35,783 bases of DNA from a virus. The stretch's first letter is position 1. Every line of letters begins with the position of its first letter. The position numbers and the translations under genes were made by a program. The notes under the pieces were generated by a model. It saw only the letters and a list, made by a program, of their open reading frames with translations, was not told where the DNA came from and did no database searches. Shown here piece after piece: positions 5,267 through 13,380 of the stretch. The stretch lies in UHGV virus genome UHGV-0117379. The stretch is one strand, 5' to 3'.

Positions 5267-6120
5267 GCACCATCCTGAAATGGGCGGGTAATAAAACCAC
5301 CATTATGTCCGAACTGAAAAAATACCTTCCTGCTGGCACGCGACTGGTTGAACCTTTCGCGGGTTCTTGTGCTGTGATGATGGAGACGGATTACCCCAGC
5401 TATCTGGTTGCGGATATTAATCCTGATTTAATCAACCTCTATAAAAAGGTTGCTGCTGATTGTGAGGCGTTTATATCTCGTGCCAGAGCTTTATTTGAGG
5501 AAGCAAACAGAGAGGTGGCTTATTACAACATAAGGCAGGAGTTTAATTACTCCACTGAAATTACTGATTTCATGAAAGCGGTATATTTTCTGTATCTCAA
5601 TCGTCATGGTTACCGTGGGCTATGTCGCTATAACAAGAGCGGGTATTTCAACATTCCCTACGGTAATTATAAAAATCCGTATTTCCCTGAAAAAGAAATT
5701 CGCGCATTTGCAGAGAAAGCCCAGCGGGCAACGTTTATCTGCGCCAGCTTTGATGAAACGCTGGCGATGTTGAAGGCGGGGGATGTGGTGTATTGCGATC
5801 CGCCTTATGACGGTACGTTTTCCGGCTATCACACTGATGGCTTCACTGAAGATGACCAGTATCACCTGGCATCCGTTCTTGAACATCGATCATCTGAAGG
5901 TCATCCGGTCATTGTTTCTAACAGTGACACATCCCTGATCCGTTCGCTGTATCGCAATTTTACTCACCACTACATCAAGGCAAAACGCAGCATCGGCGTG
6001 GCAGCTGGTGAGAGTAAATCTGCAACAGAAATCATCGCTGTTTCCGGGCCGCGCTGCTGGGTAGGATTTGATCCTTCGCGTGGCGTGGATTGTTCCGTCG
6101 TGTACGGAGTGCGTGCATGA
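5263..6120 (+). CDS. dam: Dam-type N6-adenine DNA methyltransferase (D12 class)
   Basis: N-terminal LKWAGNK...EPFAGS (SAdoMet binding) and the catalytic DPPY motif ([10 protein letters not shown]). ATGA overlap with the upstream gene. Confidence 0.9.
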
Positions 6121-8531
6121 GCCATGCTGATATGAACAACTGCAGCGGCTTTAACGAGGTCGCCGCAGCATTCTCATGGAACAGCCCGAAAAAGGCCATT
6201 AACCCTTATCTGGACCCGGCGGAAGTTGCGCCGGTTTCTGCGCTTTCAAACCTGATCACTCTGTACGCTGCCGATAACGAGCAGGAACAACTGCGCCGCG
6301 AGGCACTGAGTGATCAGGTCTGGGAGCGTTATTTCTTTAATGAATCCCGTGATCCTGTCCAACGCGAAATGGAGCAGGATAAGCTAATTAGCCGGGCAAA
6401 GCTGGCGCATGAGCAGCAGCGTTTTAATCCAGACATGGCCATTCTGGCGGACGTCAACGCCCAGCCTTCCCATATCAGCAAGCCGCTGATGCAACGTATT
6501 AAATACTTCAGCAGCCTGGGCAGGCCAAAGGCTTATTCCCGCTATTTGCGTGAGACGATTAAGCCATGCCTGGAACGACTGGAGCATGTACGCGACAGTC
6601 AGCTATCCACTTCTTTTCGCTTTATGGCAAGCCATGAAGGGCTGGACGGCCTGCTGATCCTGCCTGAAATGAGTCAGGATCAGGTGAAACGCCTGTCCAC
6701 CTTGGTAGCTGCGCATATGAGCATGTGCCTTGATACAGCTTGTGGCGATTTGTATGCCACCGATGATGTTACGCCAGAAGAAATCCGCAAGACATGGGAA
6801 AAGGTGGCAGCGGAAACCCTGCGTCTGGATGTTATCCCGCCTGCGTTTGAGCAACTCCGTCGGAAAAGAAACCGCCGTAAACCCGTGCCTTATGAACTCA
6901 TTCCTGGTTCGCTGGCGCGTATGTTATGCGCCGACTGGTGGTATCGGAAATTATGGAAGATGCGTTGCGAATGGCGGGAAGAGCAGTTGCGTGCTGTTTG
7001 CCTGGTCAGCAAAAAAGCATCTCCCTATGTCAGCTATGAAGCCGTGATGCATAAACGTGAGCAGCGCCGTAAGTCGCTGGAGTTTTTCCGTTCTCATGAA
7101 CTGGTGAACGAAGACGGCGACACGCTGGATATGGAAGACGTGGTAAACGCCAGCAGCAGCAACCCTGCGCATCGCCGCAATGAGATGATGGCCTGTGTTA
7201 AAGGTCTGGAGCTTATCGCGGAAATGCGCGGTGACTGCGCCGTTTTCTACACCATCACCTGTCCGTCACGTTTCCATTCCACGCTAAATAACGGCAGGCC
7301 CAACCCGACCTGGACAAATGCGACGGTAAGACAAAGCAGTGATTATCTGGTCGGTATGTTTGCTGCATTTCGTAAGGCGATGCACAAAGCCGGATTACGC
7401 TGGTATGGCGTGCGGGTGGCTGAGCCGCATCATGACGGTACAGTTCACTGGCACCTGTTGTGTTTTATGCGCAAAAAAGATCGCCGCGCCATTACTGCTT
7501 TGTTGCGTAAGTTTGCCATTCGTGAAGACCGCGAGGAGCTGGGTAATAACACGGAACCACGCTTTAAGTCTGAGCTGATAAACCCGCGCAAAGGTACGCC
7601 AACAAGCTACATCGCGAAATACATCAGTAAGAACATTGACGGGCGTGGTCTGGCTGGCGAGATCAGCAAGGAAACGGGTAAATCCCTGCGTGATAACGCC
7701 GAATACGTTAATGCCTGGGCGTCTCTGCATCGTGTTCAGCAATTCCGCTTCTTTGGCATTCCGGGGCGTCAGGCTTACCGTGAACTGCGATTGCTGGCTG
7801 GTCAGGCGGCAAGGCAACAGGGGGACAAAAAAGCAGGTGCGCCGGTACTGGATAACCCGCGCCTTGATGCCATCCTGGCTGCCGCTGATGCTGGCTGTTT
7901 TGCCACCTACATCATGAAGCAGGGCGGCGTACTGGTTCCCCGCAAATATCACCTCATCAGAACCGCTTATGAAATCAACGAAGAGCCGACCGCCTATGGC
8001 GATCACGGTATTCGTATTTATGGCATCTGGTCACCCATTGCAGAGGGCAAGATCTGCACTCATGCGGTGAAGTGGAAAATGGTTCGTAAGGCCGTTGACA
8101 TTCAGGAGGCGGCAGCCGACCAGGGCGCTTGCGCCCCTTGGACTCGTGGCAATAACTGTCCCCTTGCTGAAAATTTGAACCAACAAGGGAAAGACAAATC
8201 AGCTGATGGGGATACCAGAACGGAGATCACCCGCATGGATGACAAGGAGTTGCACGATTACCTGCACAGTATGAGCAAAAAAGAGCGCCGGGAACTGGCA
8301 GCAAGGTTACGCCTGGTGAAACCGAAATGGCGTAAAGACTACAAACAGCGAATTACAGAGCATCAGCGTCAGCAGCTCGTCTATGAACTGAAGTCCAGAG
8401 GATTTGATGGCAGCGAGAAAGAGGTCGATCTGCTCCTTCGCGGTGGCAGTATTCCGTCAGGAGCAGGCCTGCGTATCTTCTATCGGAACCAGCGTTTGCA
8501 GGAAGATGATAAGTGGCGGAACCTGTATTAA
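6117..8531 (+). CDS. A: Replication initiation endonuclease gpA (rolling-circle HUH nickase)
   Basis: 804 aa. HUH-type motif [13 protein letters not shown] and tyrosine motif [10 protein letters not shown], as in P2/186 gpA. ATGA overlap with dam. Confidence 0.9.
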
Positions 8532-8623
8532 TTACGCGGGTTAACAATTCGTGCTCTTAATAATACCAGGCATATCAGGCTGATGAACGTAAAAAAACGT
8601 TTTACATCAGTAAGATTATTATA

Positions 8624-8643
8624 TACTGTAAATATAAACAGTG
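8624..8643. promoter_or_regulatory. LexA (SOS) box TACTGTAAATATAAACAGTG
   Basis: Matches the CTG-N10-CAG consensus, with TACTG/CAGT flanks and an AT-rich centre. Lies 42 nt upstream of the ATG at 8685, analogous to the LexA-controlled p95/tum promoter of phage 186. Confidence 0.75.
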
Positions 8644-8684
8644 GCTATACATACAGTGTTGCGTGTGGTGTCATAGGAGGAAAG

Positions 8685-8873
8685 ATGCAGGACTATTTTT
8701 TGGAGTCTTTGAAGCTCCAGCGCATTGATTTTTTTCTTAAGCTTGTAGCGGCTAGTGAGTGTAGTGATGAAGAGAAGGGGCTGGCTTTGCAATGGGTTTC
8801 TGAACTGACAGATGAACTCATGGCAAAAATCAGAACCCACGAATACAACCGCTCAATGGATGTCATCAGCTGA
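8685..8873 (+). CDS. Small protein (62 aa) in the Tum (antirepressor) position; candidate N-terminal Tum-like module
   Basis: ATG at 8685 follows AGGAGG. Immediately downstream of the LexA box. Followed after 10 nt by a DinI-like gene. Confidence 0.55.
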   Translation: MQDYFLESLKLQRIDFFLKLVAASECSDEEKGLALQWVSELTDELMAKIRTHEYNRSMDVIS

Positions 8874-8883
8874 GGTGACTTTT

Positions 8884-9117
8884 ATGCGCATTGAAATAAT
8901 GATCGATAAAGAGCAGAAGATTAGCCAGTCTACCCTGGACGCCCTTGAATCCGAGCTTTACCGCAATCTGCGCCCCCTGTATCCCAAGACGGCGATCCGC
9001 ATTCGCAAAGGCAGTGCCAACGGTATCGAGTTGACCGGCTTAAAACTTGATGAGGATAAGCAGCGGGTAATGGAAATTATGCAGCAGGTCTGGGAAGACG
9101 ACAGCTGGCTGCATTAG
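8884..9117 (+). CDS. DinI-family protein (77 aa)
   Basis: MRIEI.I.K...........L..EL.......P......IR.......L.........DKQRV.EI.Q.VWEDD.W matches the remembered DinI/MsgA pattern (MRIEVTIAK...EDKQRISEILQETWESADDWF). Confidence 0.8.
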   Translation: MRIEIMIDKEQKISQSTLDALESELYRNLRPLYPKTAIRIRKGSANGIELTGLKLDEDKQRVMEIMQQVWEDDSWLH

Positions 9118-9403
9118 CGAACGTTGCGGACGATAAAACTGGCTTTTACCGTCCGCAAGGTTGAACAACGAGCCGTGCGAGGCGTTAGAAATTGCCTTTG
9201 TTAGTGCCTGCTTCTCATAAGAGGCACTATATATGCTAAATGCAGTGGTTTAAGGCAGAAACATCTTGCGCGATTAGGGGCAATGAACTTAAGTTAAGTA
9301 ACGCAACCAACAGTTAAAACGGTTGTCTTAGTTATAAGGAACTTGCTGTTGTGGTTGCTGGTGACGAAGTGTACACTTCCGCGCCGTATAAGAAGGAGGG
9401 GTT

Positions 9404-9622
9404 ATGTCAAGTATCGCCGCATTGAAGCTGGGTAATCCAGTTGAACGTTTGGCACGGGTTCTGAAAGAGAACCAGGACAAGCTCAATCTGAGTAAAGATG
9501 GTTTTGTGTCCGTAGATTTGTCCAACGAAGAAGCTATGAAAGCCATCCGAGATCAGATGGATAAGCTTGAAGGCATCAAAACGAGCACTGTTAAAGCAAA
9601 ATATTATTACAGAACCCGATAA
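9404..9622 (+). CDS. Hypothetical soluble 72-aa protein; first gene of a coupled two-gene cargo operon
   Basis: ATG at 9404 follows AAGGAGGGG. Its stop TAA (9620..9622) overlaps the ATG of the next gene (ATAATGG). Confidence 0.65.
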   Translation: MSSIAALKLGNPVERLARVLKENQDKLNLSKDGFVSVDLSNEEAMKAIRDQMDKLEGIKTSTVKAKYYYRTR

Positions 9623-10464
9623 TGGCAACATTACTTTTAGCAGTGATTTTGGTTAGTGGTTTTATATATGTAAACCTATCACTTTCAACACGTTATAGAT
9701 ATAAGCGTTCCAATGGCTGGGACGCTTATTTTTTTGTGGCTGCATGGGGAATTGTCTTTTTCCTCGCTGGCGGCTTCCTTACCTTCGCTCTTAACATCAG
9801 CGGTGGGTTTCGCTGGTTTTCTAATGCGCTGAATCTGACTCCAGACAGCTTTAACGGGATGTTATCCACCACAACCGATAAACCGCAGCGCATCAATGAA
9901 ATTAAGCAAATCGCGTGGGTTGTGATTTCAATAGTTCTCGCGGCGCTGTTCGGTTGGCTAAACAAACGCCGTACTTCAAAAGGGGATCGCCGTTGGGATG
10001 CACTGGCAAAGGCAGTGGGAAACAATGCTTTTGAATCGCTGCTCATGGAAGCATCAGCTCGCCAGTTTCCTATCATTGCTACACTTTCATCACGCAAAAT
10101 CTATGTAGGGCTGGTGACTTGCCCTGCGTTGGAAAATGGATTGTCGGAACACCTTGAAATTCTCCCCTTGCTGAGCGGATATCGTGATAAAGACGACCTA
10201 ACGATAAATATCACGACAAACTATCATCAGCACTATCTTGATAGCGGTGTTATCAATGGGATGTCGCGCCTGAATATCCAGGATTTCCGTGTGCTTCTCC
10301 CTAAAGATGAAGTTGAAACCATCTCGTTTTTTGATACTGAAACGTATAACAAATTTAAAGAAAACGAAGCGCGTGACCGGAAAGACTGCCGCAAGTTGGG
10401 TGGTAAAAAGCCATCCGCACGCAGGAGAAAGACTGCTGGCGACGCAGAGCAGGGTAGTGCATGA
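9622..10464 (+). CDS. Hypothetical inner-membrane protein (280 aa; 3 N-terminal TM helices, cytoplasmic C-terminal domain and basic tail)
   Basis: Hydrophobic segments at about aa 2-21, 35-57 and 97-113. The C-terminal part of about 160 aa has no recognised motif. Followed by an intrinsic terminator. Occupies the tin/old cargo position. Confidence 0.7.
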   Translation: MATLLLAVILVSGFIYVNLSLSTRYRYKRSNGWDAYFFVAAWGIVFFLAGGFLTFALNISGGFRWFSNALNLTPDSFNGMLSTTTDKPQRINEIKQIAWVVISIVLAALFGWLNKRRTSKGDRRWDALAKAVGNNAFESLLMEASARQFPIIATLSSRKIYVGLVTCPALENGLSEHLEILPLLSGYRDKDDLTINITTNYHQHYLDSGVINGMSRLNIQDFRVLLPKDEVETISFFDTETYNKFKENEARDRKDCRKLGGKKPSARRRKTAGDAEQGSA

Positions 10465-10512
10465 CTATGCTGCATGAATTTGCATGATCGTTTGAGGATC
10501 GTTTTAGCTCCG

Positions 10513-10537
10513 GCCCGCCAGTTCAGGCGGGCTTTTT
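10513..10537 (+). terminator. Rho-independent terminator (GCCCGCC-AGTTCA-GGCGGGC-TTTTT)
   Basis: Perfect 7-bp GC stem, 6-nt loop and T5 run, 49 nt after the stop at 10464. Confidence 0.8.
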
Positions 10538-10581
10538 CATATCTCATGCAGGTGCATGAAAACCACTACACAAAGCGGGCA

Positions 10582-10600
10582 GGCGTGGCGGGGATACGAG
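10582..10600. other. cos cohesive-end site (GGCGTGGCGGGGATACGAG)
   Basis: The first 13 nt are identical to the remembered 186 cohesive end (GGCGTGGCGGGGAAAGCAT) and near-identical to P2 (GGCGAGGCGGGGAAAGCAC). The following CGCGCGCT also resembles the P2 left end (..TGCGCGCTGA). Confidence 0.6.
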
Positions 10601-10608
10601 CGCGCGCT

Positions 10609-10637
10609 CATTACTTTTATAATTCTAGGGTTATAAT
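10609..10637 (+). promoter_or_regulatory. Candidate promoter of the KAP NTPase gene (two TATAAT hexamers at 10618..10623 and 10632..10637)
   Basis: Two consensus -10 hexamers lie 29-48 nt upstream of the ATG at 10666. AGGAG SD at 10654..10658. The -35 elements are weak. Confidence 0.4.
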
Positions 10638-10665
10638 ACAGGGCTATCTTTCTAGGAGAAAACAC

Positions 10666-12318
10666 ATGTCCTTAGAGTTTATCAAAGAACAGTTGTCAGA
10701 TTTTATCTCATCTACAGAACCAGAAGTAATGGCTATACAGGGTGAATGGGGAATTGGTAAAACCTATACTTGGAATACGTTCCTAAAAGATAATAAAGAT
10801 AAGGTTGCATTTAATAGATATAGTTATGTCTCTCTTTTTGGTATAAATTCACTAGATTCTTTAAAGTATTCTATTTTTGAGAATGCAATTACAAAGGAAT
10901 ATATTGGAAATAAACCTGATTTGGAGACAGCAACAACAAACGCAAGTGGACTTTTTGAATCGTTTTCTCGAAAAGCCGCAGGTTTGTTAAAAGAAGCTCC
11001 TGTTGTAAAAAACTTCTCTACGACACTTGAAGCAATGTCATTTCTGACCGTTTCTAAAATGATTGTAGTAATAGATGACTTAGAAAGGCGTGGCAAAAAC
11101 TTAGATGTTAAAGATGTTTTAGGGCTAGTATCTCTATTAAAGGAGCAGAAGGATTGTAAGGTGGTTCTATTGCTTAACAATGGCACAGCTAGTATGGAGG
11201 ATTATTCTACTTATAAAGAAAAGGTCATTGATAGAGATATCACTTACAATCCAACACCAGAAGAATGCGCAGATATAGCCTATAAAGGTGATTTTCATGT
11301 TTATAACTTGTTAAGTAAATATTCCATTTCTTTAGGTATCAAGAATATTCGAATCTTAAAAAAGATAGAACGTTTTTTCGTGTCCTTAACACCAAATATT
11401 ATAGGTGATGTTGAGACAATTTCAAATGAAGTTGCGCATTCATTAACTCTGTATTGTTGGAGCCATTACGGATTTTCTCCAGAGGGAGATGTGCCATCAC
11501 TAGAATATATTAGGGGAGTGAGGAATATATATACTTATAATGACAAGGAAGAAGGCCATGAGAAAGTCTGGCTTAATACCTTGCTTAAATATGGATATAG
11601 AAAAACGAATGATCTTGATGAGGTTCTTATTGATATGGTTAGATATGGCTATCTTGATAAGAGCAGTTTCCAAAGACAAATAAGCCTAAGGAATGAGGAG
11701 ATTACGCGTGATAATAAACGAGGTTCCTTATCTGAGGCATGGCAGTTCTTTCATAATTCATTTGATGACAATCAAAATCAGGTTGTTGACAAGCTATATC
11801 AAGCGGTGGTTGATGGGATGAAGTATGTGACTCCAAGTGATTTAGATAATGTTGTCGGACTATATAGGGATTTCGGAGAGAATGCTAAGGCGAGTGAATT
11901 GATTGAACAGTTTATTAATTATGGTAACGATGCTCTAAAGGAATATGTTCAATCTATTTATGTGAATGTTCATCCCGTAAGAGATGCTGAGTTGTTGTCA
12001 AAAATTCAAGCCTATTCTAATATTATAAATATTGATGGTTCAATATATGATGTTCTTAAGAAATTATCAGGTCAGAATGGTTGGTCTGATAGACATGAGG
12101 AAATATTGGATGCTGCTTCAGTAGATGACTACTATCAATTATTTAAAAATGTCATTCTTGATGGTGGTGATTCAATAATAGCTACGGCGCTTAAATTCGG
12201 AAATTATAGTAATGGTTCTGATAGAATGAATCGTATAGGGAAAAAGGCAAGGGATGCCTTGATAAGAATTGGAGATGAATCGGCGATTAATAAAATACGT
12301 GTAAGGCGATTTTTGTGA
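10666..12318 (+). CDS. KAP-family P-loop NTPase (550 aa, no inserted TM helices)
   Basis: Walker A GEWGIGKT (10741..10764), Walker B IVVIDDLER (11062..11088) and a downstream NIRILKKIERFF motif fit KAP NTPase signatures (GxWGxGKS/T; hhhhDDLDR; PRxIKRFxN). Strongly AT-rich (20/60 GC in 11101..11160). The start is taken downstream of the terminator and cos, which lie inside the longer ORF 10474..12318. Confidence 0.8.
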   Translation: MSLEFIKEQLSDFISSTEPEVMAIQGEWGIGKTYTWNTFLKDNKDKVAFNRYSYVSLFGINSLDSLKYSIFENAITKEYIGNKPDLETATTNASGLFESFSRKAAGLLKEAPVVKNFSTTLEAMSFLTVSKMIVVIDDLERRGKNLDVKDVLGLVSLLKEQKDCKVVLLLNNGTASMEDYSTYKEKVIDRDITYNPTPEECADIAYKGDFHVYNLLSKYSISLGIKNIRILKKIERFFVSLTPNIIGDVETISNEVAHSLTLYCWSHYGFSPEGDVPSLEYIRGVRNIYTYNDKEEGHEKVWLNTLLKYGYRKTNDLDEVLIDMVRYGYLDKSSFQRQISLRNEEITRDNKRGSLSEAWQFFHNSFDDNQNQVVDKLYQAVVDGMKYVTPSDLDNVVGLYRDFGENAKASELIEQFINYGNDALKEYVQSIYVNVHPVRDAELLSKIQAYSNIINIDGSIYDVLKKLSGQNGWSDRHEEILDAASVDDYYQLFKNVILDGGDSIIATALKFGNYSNGSDRMNRIGKKARDALIRIGDESAINKIRVRRFL

Positions 12319-12348: not shown

Positions 12349-13380
12349 CTAATTTAATGAGTAATCATTAAATGCTATGATTTTTTCATTTAGCCAAGTA
12401 TTAATTTCTATAAGCCTTTTTTGTAACGGAATTAATTCATTTCGGACAAAGACTTTACTAGCCTTTTCCACATCCCCAAACCCCCCAACATTATTCGGCA
12501 TTATCCCCATCATTTGCGGCGGCACGCGGTGTGCCGCCATCATGTCGTCCCGGCTCACGTTCTTAATATTCAAAAACTCATCCTTCGCTGCGACCTCTGA
12601 CAACGGGATAATCTGAAGCCCGTCCTTTTTGCCGTTAGGCGAGTACATAAACAGGTTGCGGAAGTTGCCCGGACCTTTGGCGCTTTTCATCGCATTGCGG
12701 AGGTTGTTCACATCTTCCTGGTTCTGCGCGGCATCGGTCATGTACATGATGAAGCCTGCATGACTGCCGTTAATGTAATACTTCCGGCGGAACAGCGTGG
12801 CGGACTCGTTGAGCAGGGCTGACGGAATGGCAGAAAGATAACCTGGCAGGCCGTAGATCTCCTGGTTGATGTCCGGTTCCATCAGATGAAAAATGCTGCC
12901 TTTCGTGAACTGATACTGCTGGGTTGTAATACCATATTGCACAAACCAGTAGGTATCCAGGTCTAATCCGCGTCGGGTGTATTTTGCCAGCGCAGGTTCA
13001 AGGGCGATAACTTCACCGAAGCGGTTCGTGCGTTTCTCCAGGTAGGCGTTACCAAATACCAGATAGTCCTGCACAAAACGTGAAAAAGCCTGCTGGCTGA
13101 GCAGCGGGTGAGGGATATAGGTGCTGGTCAGAATATTGCACTTTACTGCAATCGGTGAGCTGTGATGCACGGCGGCGCGGAAGGCTCGCGCCAGTCCGTC
13201 AAAACTCACTGGCGGCTCATACCAGCGATCTGTCTGTACGCATTCCACATAGTCCAGTCGTTCGCGGCGATCCAGTACTGGAATGGGATCGCCGAAGCTG
13301 AATGCTTCGGCTGAAGTCTGGCTTTTATGCTGGGTCTGGTTCTGCGACGCAGCGCGGTTCTTCTTACTCTTTCCCATCAA
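12349..13380 (-). CDS. Q: Portal (capsid packaging) protein gpQ
   Basis: 343 aa. Position and orientation match P2 Q, upstream of cos and co-transcribed with P. The last ~40 codons are AT-rich, unlike the rest of the gene. Confidence 0.9.
   Translation of the reverse strand: MMGKSKKNRAASQNQTQHKSQTSAEAFSFGDPIPVLDRRERLDYVECVQTDRWYEPPVSFDGLARAFRAAVHHSSPIAVKCNILTSTYIPHPLLSQQAFSRFVQDYLVFGNAYLEKRTNRFGEVIALEPALAKYTRRGLDLDTYWFVQYGITTQQYQFTKGSIFHLMEPDINQEIYGLPGYLSAIPSALLNESATLFRRKYYINGSHAGFIMYMTDAAQNQEDVNNLRNAMKSAKGPGNFRNLFMYSPNGKKDGLQIIPLSEVAAKDEFLNIKNVSRDDMMAAHRVPPQMMGIMPNNVGGFGDVEKASKVFVRNELIPLQKRLIEINTWLNEKIIAFNDYSLN

Follow-up and report, generated by a model that had tools for sequence, protein, structure and literature searches.

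A coupled gene pair encoding a small soluble protein and a predicted Sm-like membrane protein in the right-end cargo position of a P2-like prophage

Introduction

Among the systems borne by prophages, RexA/RexB of phage lambda is an abortive-infection pair with a membrane effector, and gp15 of phage HK97 is a superinfection-exclusion moron placed within the tail gene cluster. The present analysis concerns a pair of genes from the virus genome UHGV-0117379, a stretch of 35,783 nucleotides (nt; hereafter, the window) that corresponds to a P2-like (Peduoviridae) prophage. The pair encodes a soluble protein of 72 amino acids (aa) and an inner-membrane protein of 280 aa, and it is found where P2 carries tin and old, a site at which most of the known cargo acts against phages. 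As cargo of a known hotspot, the pair is of an ordinary kind, but its architecture and the size of its family are unusual.

Comparison with Described Systems

Cargo of the P2 hotspot, tin and old included, is placed between the early replication and DinI genes and the cos region and portal gene, and it is variable and atypical in guanine-cytosine (GC) content (PMC9122126); the same applies to the pair. Position alone is shared with Tin and Old: BLASTP of the pair's proteins against P2 Tin gave E values of 0.62 and 1.9, i.e., no similarity, and the ATPase and TOPRIM domains of Old have no counterpart in the pair by Pfam. Moreover, old and tin are transcribed away from cos, whereas the pair is transcribed towards it.

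The working model was lambda RexA/RexB, likewise a prophage two-gene unit composed of one soluble and one polytopic inner-membrane protein. However, no homology between both systems was found with Pfam or PADLOC, their protein sizes and gene order differ, and the pair combines a membrane protein carrying a large, predicted Sm-like cytoplasmic domain with a soluble partner of just 72 aa. Compact associations of a small soluble and an inner-membrane protein, found on chromosomes and mobile elements, are also represented by CptA(YgfX)/CptB(SdhE) and GhoT/GhoS, to which the pair showed no sequence or fold match, its membrane protein being far larger and provided with a folded cytoplasmic domain. 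Like morons such as HK97 gp15, the module is present or absent between backbone genes and deviates in GC content, and one relative is located among lambdoid tail genes; unlike them, it has only a candidate promoter of its own, and the terminator that it uses belongs to the backbone cos region. Neither protein had a Pfam or PHROG annotation of the SieB or Rex exclusion type, and where sieB does occur next to the pair, as in some E. coli loci, it is a gene of its own.

MscS is a heptameric channel comprising a Sm-like beta domain, and Sm-like domains act in RNA binding in Hfq. The 280-aa protein is similar to MscS in that a cytoplasmic beta domain, predicted here to be Sm-like, comes after three transmembrane (TM) helices, although neither the MS_channel models nor the C-terminal alpha-beta domain of MscS were recovered in it. 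The WYL domain is another Sm-like ligand-binding domain, found in defense regulators (PMC4012209). No sequence-level relationship linked the pair to Sm/LSm/Hfq or WYL proteins, and its domain is distinguished by the fusion to three TM helices and by extra helices inserted among the strands.

The pair may encode a membrane effector, expressed from the prophage, that excludes other phages or aborts their infection under the control of the small partner, a reading to which a probability of roughly 0.4 was assigned. Exclusion or abortive infection is plausible on the grounds of location and architecture, and a role in defense is supported by the hotspot position, the atypical GC content and the neighboring cargo, which is either a KAP gene of the PADLOC type PDC-S49 or a bSEFIR gene.

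A Coupled and Co-Inherited Gene Pair

Both genes are on the plus strand, at 9404..9622 (72 aa; PHROG 9843) and 9622..10464 (280 aa; PHROG 3630), and neither PHROG has an annotated function. The two open reading frames (ORFs) had been recognized from the letters of the window, and RefSeq annotates the same genes in E. coli MB06173, the locus of which is 99.9% identical; Klebsiella phage ST15-OXA48phi14.1 carries the pair at 99.6% identity. The TAA of the first gene overlaps the ATG of the second in a TAATG at 9620-9624. This overlap had been noticed in the sequence-only reading, although the surrounding ATAATGG, placed there at 9618..9624, starts one base later and spans 9619..9625. The strong Shine-Dalgarno (SD) sequence claimed for the first gene, AAGGAGGGG, is present on the same strand at 9393..9401, and an AGGAG-type SD was conserved in 13/13 aligned relatives.

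The genomic context was analyzed in 36 loci from distinct species, spanning Enterobacterales, Aeromonas, Vibrio, Shewanella, Pseudomonas, Betaproteobacteria, a cyanobacterium, Binatia, Acidobacteriota and Leptospirales, and 37 sources were examined for an upstream ORF. A small ORF directly preceded the membrane gene in 36 of these 37 sources, ending between -13 and +35 nt from its start, so that the co-occurrence of both genes, proposed as a check on the pair, was verified. A jackhmmer search seeded with the 72-aa protein against 9,960 six-frame ORFs from all loci recovered the upstream ORF only, in 27 sources. Moreover, partners of the same small size are present in the most distant clades, such as Pseudomonas, where they were called by an independent gene caller and present a 13-nt overlap with the membrane gene. 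The two genes are one coupled, strictly co-inherited module.

A feature absent from the sequence-only reading, and new in this analysis, is a terminator-like hairpin inside the 280-aa gene (plus strand; stem-loop at 9701-9729, reaching 9736 with a run of seven T; 12-bp stem, loop of 5), which starts 80 nt past the gene start and encodes the conserved YKRSNGWDAYFF segment. At synonymous sites, the nucleotide conservation of 9701-9736 exceeds the requirement of the protein: identical amino acids were specified by an identical codon in 70% of cases inside the element versus 35% outside it (odds ratio 4.2; Fisher p ~1e-9, for pairwise comparisons that are not independent), and the direction was the same in 11/11 comparisons. 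The stem was kept in relatives of 39-58% protein identity, and in two cases the pairing was preserved through amino-acid changes on both arms; the Vibrio clade lacks the stem. The single hit of the Rfam scan, sau-6072, fell over this element at 22.9 bits, under its gathering score of 50. The hairpin may be an attenuator or a translational pause site, and it might hold the amount of the membrane protein below that of its partner or render the synthesis of the membrane protein dependent on coupling.

Adjacency, common direction, overlap or near-overlap and co-inheritance, all found here, are also the architecture of toxin-antitoxin (TA) modules. The pair could accordingly be viewed as a membrane toxin with a small antitoxin, an addiction module that would persist because it is hard to lose and would have no dedicated anti-phage role. 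This view was judged unlikely, even though it would accommodate the strict co-inheritance of a small upstream gene with the larger one that it overlaps, the presence of the module both amid housekeeping genes and on mobile carriers (prophages, conjugative plasmids), and an intragenic terminator-like element that would favor the upstream product. No toxin or antitoxin model of Pfam, NCBIfam or PADLOC matched either protein, and the toxicity of the 280-aa protein is an assumption that a TA module brings with it. Furthermore, TA and abortive-infection functions can coexist.

A Right-End Cargo Cassette of P2-Like Prophages

The limits of the cassette were mapped by aligning its flanks with those of P2-like phages bearing other cargo (ST13-OXA48phi12.1 and Cartapus). 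On the left side, backbone homology spans dinI and a first hairpin and ends at ~9190; in both of these phages, a different gene begins 3 bases past the end of this homology. On the right side, the sequence beyond ~10457 is common to phages with different cargo. Since the backbone stops at ~9190 and the cos block starts at 10457, the cassette was delimited to ~9191-10464, a self-contained accessory unit between dinI and cos at the prophage right end, where it occupies the tin/old position as right-end cargo. The site is fixed, with the pair being present or absent among close relatives, and the composition of the pair (41-48% GC) is unlike that of the backbone (53-55%). Regarding expression signals of its own, the candidate promoter is conserved in position and scores below the detection threshold, and the terminator lies within the backbone cos region.

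The proposal that the pair is accessory cargo at the P2 tin/old position agreed with its distribution, since the protein was matched in 12 of 50,697 phage records and the pair was present in 52 of 5,426 complete E. coli genomes. The same figures bear on a function of the P2/186 backbone, such as that of an early gene for replication, lysis or regulation, which could be suspected because the pair comes after the early replication genes and has their orientation. This possibility was refuted: most P2-like phages lack the pair and other cargo is found at the site, and the same module occurs in lambdoid prophages, plasmids and bacterial chromosomes.

The Membrane Protein and Its Small Partner

The three-TM protein with a cytoplasmic C-terminal domain that had been read from the sequence was corroborated by the agreement between hydrophobic segments (aa ~1-23, 34-63 and 91-115) and the helices of an AlphaFold2 (AF2) model (predicted local distance difference test, pLDDT, of 84), which span aa 2-19, 33-60 and 87-119 and are followed by a domain of a helix plus strands. 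Considering the positive-inside rule, the richness in K/R of loop 1 (RYRYKRS) and of the segment after TM3 (NKRRTSKGDRR) points to a topology with the N-terminus out, three TM helices and the C-terminus in. The cytoplasmic domain is predicted, at fold level, to be a Sm-like beta-barrel with its strands within aa 151-236; as in the Sm/LSm/Hfq fold, the model presents an N-terminal helix and a strongly bent five-stranded beta-barrel. This barrel holds the cluster of invariant residues (K159, Y161, G163, S185, G186, R188, Y201 and F237), and the family bears the signature LSGYRDKD. The basic C-terminal tail noted earlier is not conserved and has low confidence in the model. The family profile matched none of the PDB sequences, and the BFVD fold search retrieved uncharacterized proteins only. 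The C-terminal Sm-like part alone was matched in a 150-aa relative (P0245), in a locus of Pseudomonas phage vB_Pae_U5 (L041, 1-768) and in phrog_23864, which suggests that this domain may also stand alone or with another N-terminus. One RefSeq homologue is labeled 'DUF2207', a label that was set aside for the window protein, whose match is sub-threshold (16 bits) and falls over the TM helices.

The idea that a Sm-like ring might gate a pore upon ligand binding was drawn by analogy from the rings of Sm/Hfq proteins, from WYL ligand sensors and from the arrangement of MscS, and it was considered distinctly unlikely. Just as improbable is a broader proposal, according to which these proteins would constitute a new class of membrane-tethered Sm-ring proteins working as an undescribed immune or exclusion effector, with a pore of 18-21 TM helices, the partner as cap or sensor, and an intragenic attenuator. 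In such an arrangement, the ring would bind either a nucleotide signal or the nucleic acid (DNA or RNA) of an incoming phage, and thereby gate the pore; capping of the ring or sensing of the trigger would fall to the small partner, the attenuator would set the ratio of both proteins, and the effector would have been spread by phages, plasmids and chromosomes over several bacterial phyla.

The 72-aa protein was modeled as a helix, a beta-hairpin (KDGFVSVDL) and a long helix, and this mediocre model (pLDDT 69.5) had no significant structural neighbor. The partners have a ~40-residue core made up of a helix, a beta-hairpin at an invariant Gly and an amphipathic helix. The name 'multidrug ABC transporter ATPase' given to the 72-aa family in NCBI and UniRef was rejected, as no ABC or ATPase signal was found in Pfam or NCBIfam; the same name is attached to the homologues P0075 and P0081, among others, and it looks like a propagated mis-annotation.

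Family Distribution and Genomic Contexts

The homologues of the 280-aa protein formed 73 clusters at 90% identity, and the family profile matched 3,220 representatives at 50% identity (E ≤ 1e-3), 2,461 of them at E ≤ 1e-10. Among 150 matches listed, the length was ~215-340 aa, save for one 150-aa relative. Searches of Pfam, NCBIfam and PADLOC agreed with the earlier remark that neither protein belongs to a recognizable family, as no model of these collections was matched by the pair; ten distant family members were also without a Pfam family, and relatives on a plasmid and in other phages were also without a PADLOC match. The family, with its thousands of relatives, is catalogued yet uncharacterized and has no model in Pfam, NCBIfam or PADLOC.

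In Enterobacterales, the module is patchy and carried by mobile elements. Other P2-like phages, such as SEN4 and SEN5, have it at the same right-end site, whereas it was found between the repressor and the integrase in the P2-like phage C5a, between the integrase and attP in Cronobacter phiES15, and within a prophage in Vibrio. In Enterobacter hormaechei (L043/L044, 7775-8801), a pair of 72 aa and 266 aa is inserted in the tail gene cluster of a lambdoid prophage, flanked by a Prok-JAB/NLPC_P60 tail gene and by genes preceding a GpJ-like tail-tip gene. The module was also present on 31 plasmids, 25 of them from Salmonella. A distant pair (68 aa and 262 aa) of the IncC-type Salmonella plasmid pSTY1-2010K-1587 (L049, 3611-6789) is placed directly downstream of a RecD-like helicase gene (PADLOC typeIV_RecD, 2.4e-50) and adjoins a mer operon.

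Rousset et al. 2022 (PMC9122126) had listed the E. coli orthologues WP_000094764 and WP_021556032 in the P2 hotspot (Table S5), labeled 'hypothetical + hypothetical' and accompanied by variable companions, such as SieB and PIN_12. Two further hotspot entries of that study, #43 (count 93) and #57 (count 75, with a 78-aa partner), are divergent relatives, supported as family members by hhalign with probabilities of 100% and 99.8%, respectively. By sequence comparison, at least three types of cargo in the E. coli P2 hotspot, divergent from one another, come from this family. In the part of the tested-systems table of PMC9122126 available as text, the family motif was not found. The literature search retrieved no study of the family, no experiment on the pair and no paper naming its accession numbers.

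Proposed Function

A single message would give rise to the 72-aa cytoplasmic protein and then, by termination-reinitiation at TAATG, to the 280-aa protein. If the pair is an exclusion or abortive-infection system, the cassette would be expressed from the prophage, and the lysogen would be protected by an entry block or by abortive infection, with the membrane protein as the effector. Its Sm-like domains would oligomerize and/or bind a nucleic-acid or nucleotide ligand under the membrane and would thereby control a pore or another perturbation of the membrane by the TM helices. The small partner would either restrain or trigger this effector, and translational coupling, possibly together with the intragenic hairpin, would hold production of the membrane protein under that of its partner.

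Several observations weigh against this proposal. No match was found for either protein in PADLOC-DB v2.0.0 at E ≤ 1, and neither the motif nor the accession numbers were found in the portion of the DefensePredictor supplements available as text. In 21 distant chromosomal loci, the neighbors were mostly housekeeping genes, with metabolic, transport and two-component functions, and few matched defense models; enrichment in defense islands was not seen among these loci, a small sample with no formal background rate. The Pseudomonas copies (L028, L030, L033, L035, L036 and L051-L053) are syntenic across species, beside a flavin oxidoreductase gene and an XRE-cupin regulator gene, and the pair in this genus resembles stable cellular genes more than mobile immunity. 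Even at E ≤ 1 there was no LSM or Hfq match in Pfam, with no homology of the Sm1/Sm2 type, and hhalign gave a probability of 0.07% between the family profile and E. coli Hfq; in view of this lack of sequence relationship to Hfq/LSM, Sm-like is to be taken as a fold assignment and not as family membership. Finally, the promoter of the pair is a candidate, and oligomerization, ligand binding, pore formation and the role of the partner enter the proposal as inferences.

Part of this evidence would suit a module of general cell physiology, in which a membrane-tethered Sm-like protein would serve a stress response or the homeostasis of the membrane or of RNA/nucleotides, being carried by the prophage as a lysogenic-conversion gene unrelated to defense. 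A very large family present in several phyla, the ordinary metabolic, transport and two-component neighbors of the distant loci, the synteny in Pseudomonas, and the precedents of Hfq, whose Sm-like domain binds RNA, and MscS are all compatible with it. It was nevertheless held to be doubtful as an explanation for the pair, considering that the module is patchy and borne by mobile elements at accessory positions in Enterobacterales, that the same P2 hotspot has acquired no fewer than three divergent subfamilies, and that there is no MS_channel or Hfq/LSM signal in the sequence. If it were correct, the pair would represent an unrecognized and widespread family of Sm-like proteins. On the other hand, an anti-phage or exclusion role would define a new effector architecture, formed by three TM helices, a Sm-like domain and an obligatory mini-partner, and would allow many genes now labeled 'hypothetical' to be annotated in prophages and on plasmids, those of the IncC resistance type among them.

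The Upstream Region

The 285-nt segment upstream of the 72-aa gene (9118..9403) had been described as a single structured leader, an interpretation that was abandoned, since it comprises a backbone hairpin, the junction and a promoter region and is specific to the cassette only from ~9191. Its folding z-score of -2.9 was largely due to the backbone hairpin, which is found also without the pair, and the Rfam scan of 8500-11000 (E ≤ 1) revealed no known RNA family in it. This hairpin (plus strand, 9120..9162), located just after the DinI stop codon in the left flank and outside the cassette, was well supported, with pairing in 97.5% of cells, compensatory changes at 4 pairs and none of 500 shuffles as good. 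The sequence-only reading had placed it at about 9123..9157, and it does exist; its assignment to the cassette did not hold, given that two phages without the pair, ST13-OXA48phi12.1 and Cartapus, have it as well, with compensatory changes. It is a conserved structure of the P2 backbone and, having no T-run, is probably not a simple intrinsic terminator.

The region specific to the cassette (plus strand, 9191..9403) was recognized by block conservation among pair-bearing loci, and E. coli variants align with the window from ~9257 onward. Folding recovered the previously noted hairpin with a 7-bp stem at 9204-9229 (plus strand). The conserved box CACTATATATGC at 9225-9236 and the perfect 10-bp palindrome AACTTAAGTT at 9286-9295, both upstream of the 72-aa gene, were kept among pair-bearing loci even where the flanks had diverged, and they may be regulatory sites. 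The three spaced AGTTA(W)(R)(W)(R) repeats noted previously were discarded as operators: only 2 exact matches are present in the former leader, the 4 matches of the whole window compare with 3.1 expected by chance, and the motifs are not conserved in relatives.

A sigma-70 promoter had also been suspected at 9349..9377 (plus strand, TTGTGG-17-TACACT), from which a 5′ untranslated region of ~20 nt would result. The sequence is present as described but scores under the threshold of a consensus promoter scan; because a comparable element recurs in the same relative position in the divergent loci L002, L008 and L012, it was kept as a candidate.

The cos Region and Neighboring Genes

A P2-type cos region of the backbone (10457..10608) forms the right bound of the cassette. 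This block is conserved whatever the cargo on either side, and it aligns with the annotated P2 right end and cosR, with the homologue of the 19-nt cohesive end at 10582-10600 reading GGCGTGGCGGGGATACGAG versus GGCGAGGCGGGGAAAGCAC in P2 cosR. Its first bases provide the stop codon of the 280-aa gene. The terminator described after this gene is real, being the top terminator-like site of the region (plus strand; 8-bp stem at 10512-10533 and T-run to 10537), but it lies inside the conserved cos block and is a backbone element, not part of the cassette. The corrected anatomy, i.e., the junctions, cos, the shared terminator and the intragenic hairpin, defines the exact segment to clone.

Upstream of the pair, the gpA replication endonuclease gene (6090-8531) is followed by a small ORF and by the DinI-family gene, which ends at 9117. 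Beyond cos, a KAP-family P-loop nucleoside triphosphatase (NTPase) gene (plus strand, 10666..12318; PADLOC PDC-S49, E 4.5e-28) is a separate cargo of the left end, between cos and the portal gene (minus strand, 12349-13380), past which the terminase gene is located.

A three-gene system, with the KAP NTPase as sensor and the membrane protein as effector, could be envisaged from the adjacency and common direction of these genes in the prophage and from the status of KAP NTPases as candidate defense proteins (PDC-S49). However, such a system is very improbable and close to refuted. As cos intervenes, the pair and the KAP gene are at opposite ends of the packaged genome; their GC contents differ (41-48% for the pair and 33-36% for the KAP gene); and their co-occurrence, which had been put forward as a check, turned out to be rare, with 4 complete E. 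coli genomes carrying both, compared with 52 for the pair and 123 for the KAP gene. The KAP gene was found at ≥99% identity in 115 E. coli records, mostly without the pair. Downstream of the same pair, ST15-OXA48phi14.1 carries bSEFIR and E. coli WS0115A carries unrelated genes. The pair and the KAP gene are independent.

In the cos region, the heptamer TGCATGA occurs five times in ~100 bp (at 10458, 10471, 10481, 10544 on the minus strand, and 10553), out of 10 occurrences in the whole window; the P2 right end has similar TGCAT repeats, and these may be terminase recognition elements. An ORF at 10474-10665, which extends the KAP frame upstream, was rejected and is probably neither a gene nor an N-terminal extension of the KAP protein, since it crosses the terminator and cos and the NTPase start in RefSeq is at 10666; in MK433578, the ORF starting at 10474 is annotated as a separate coding sequence of 69 aa.

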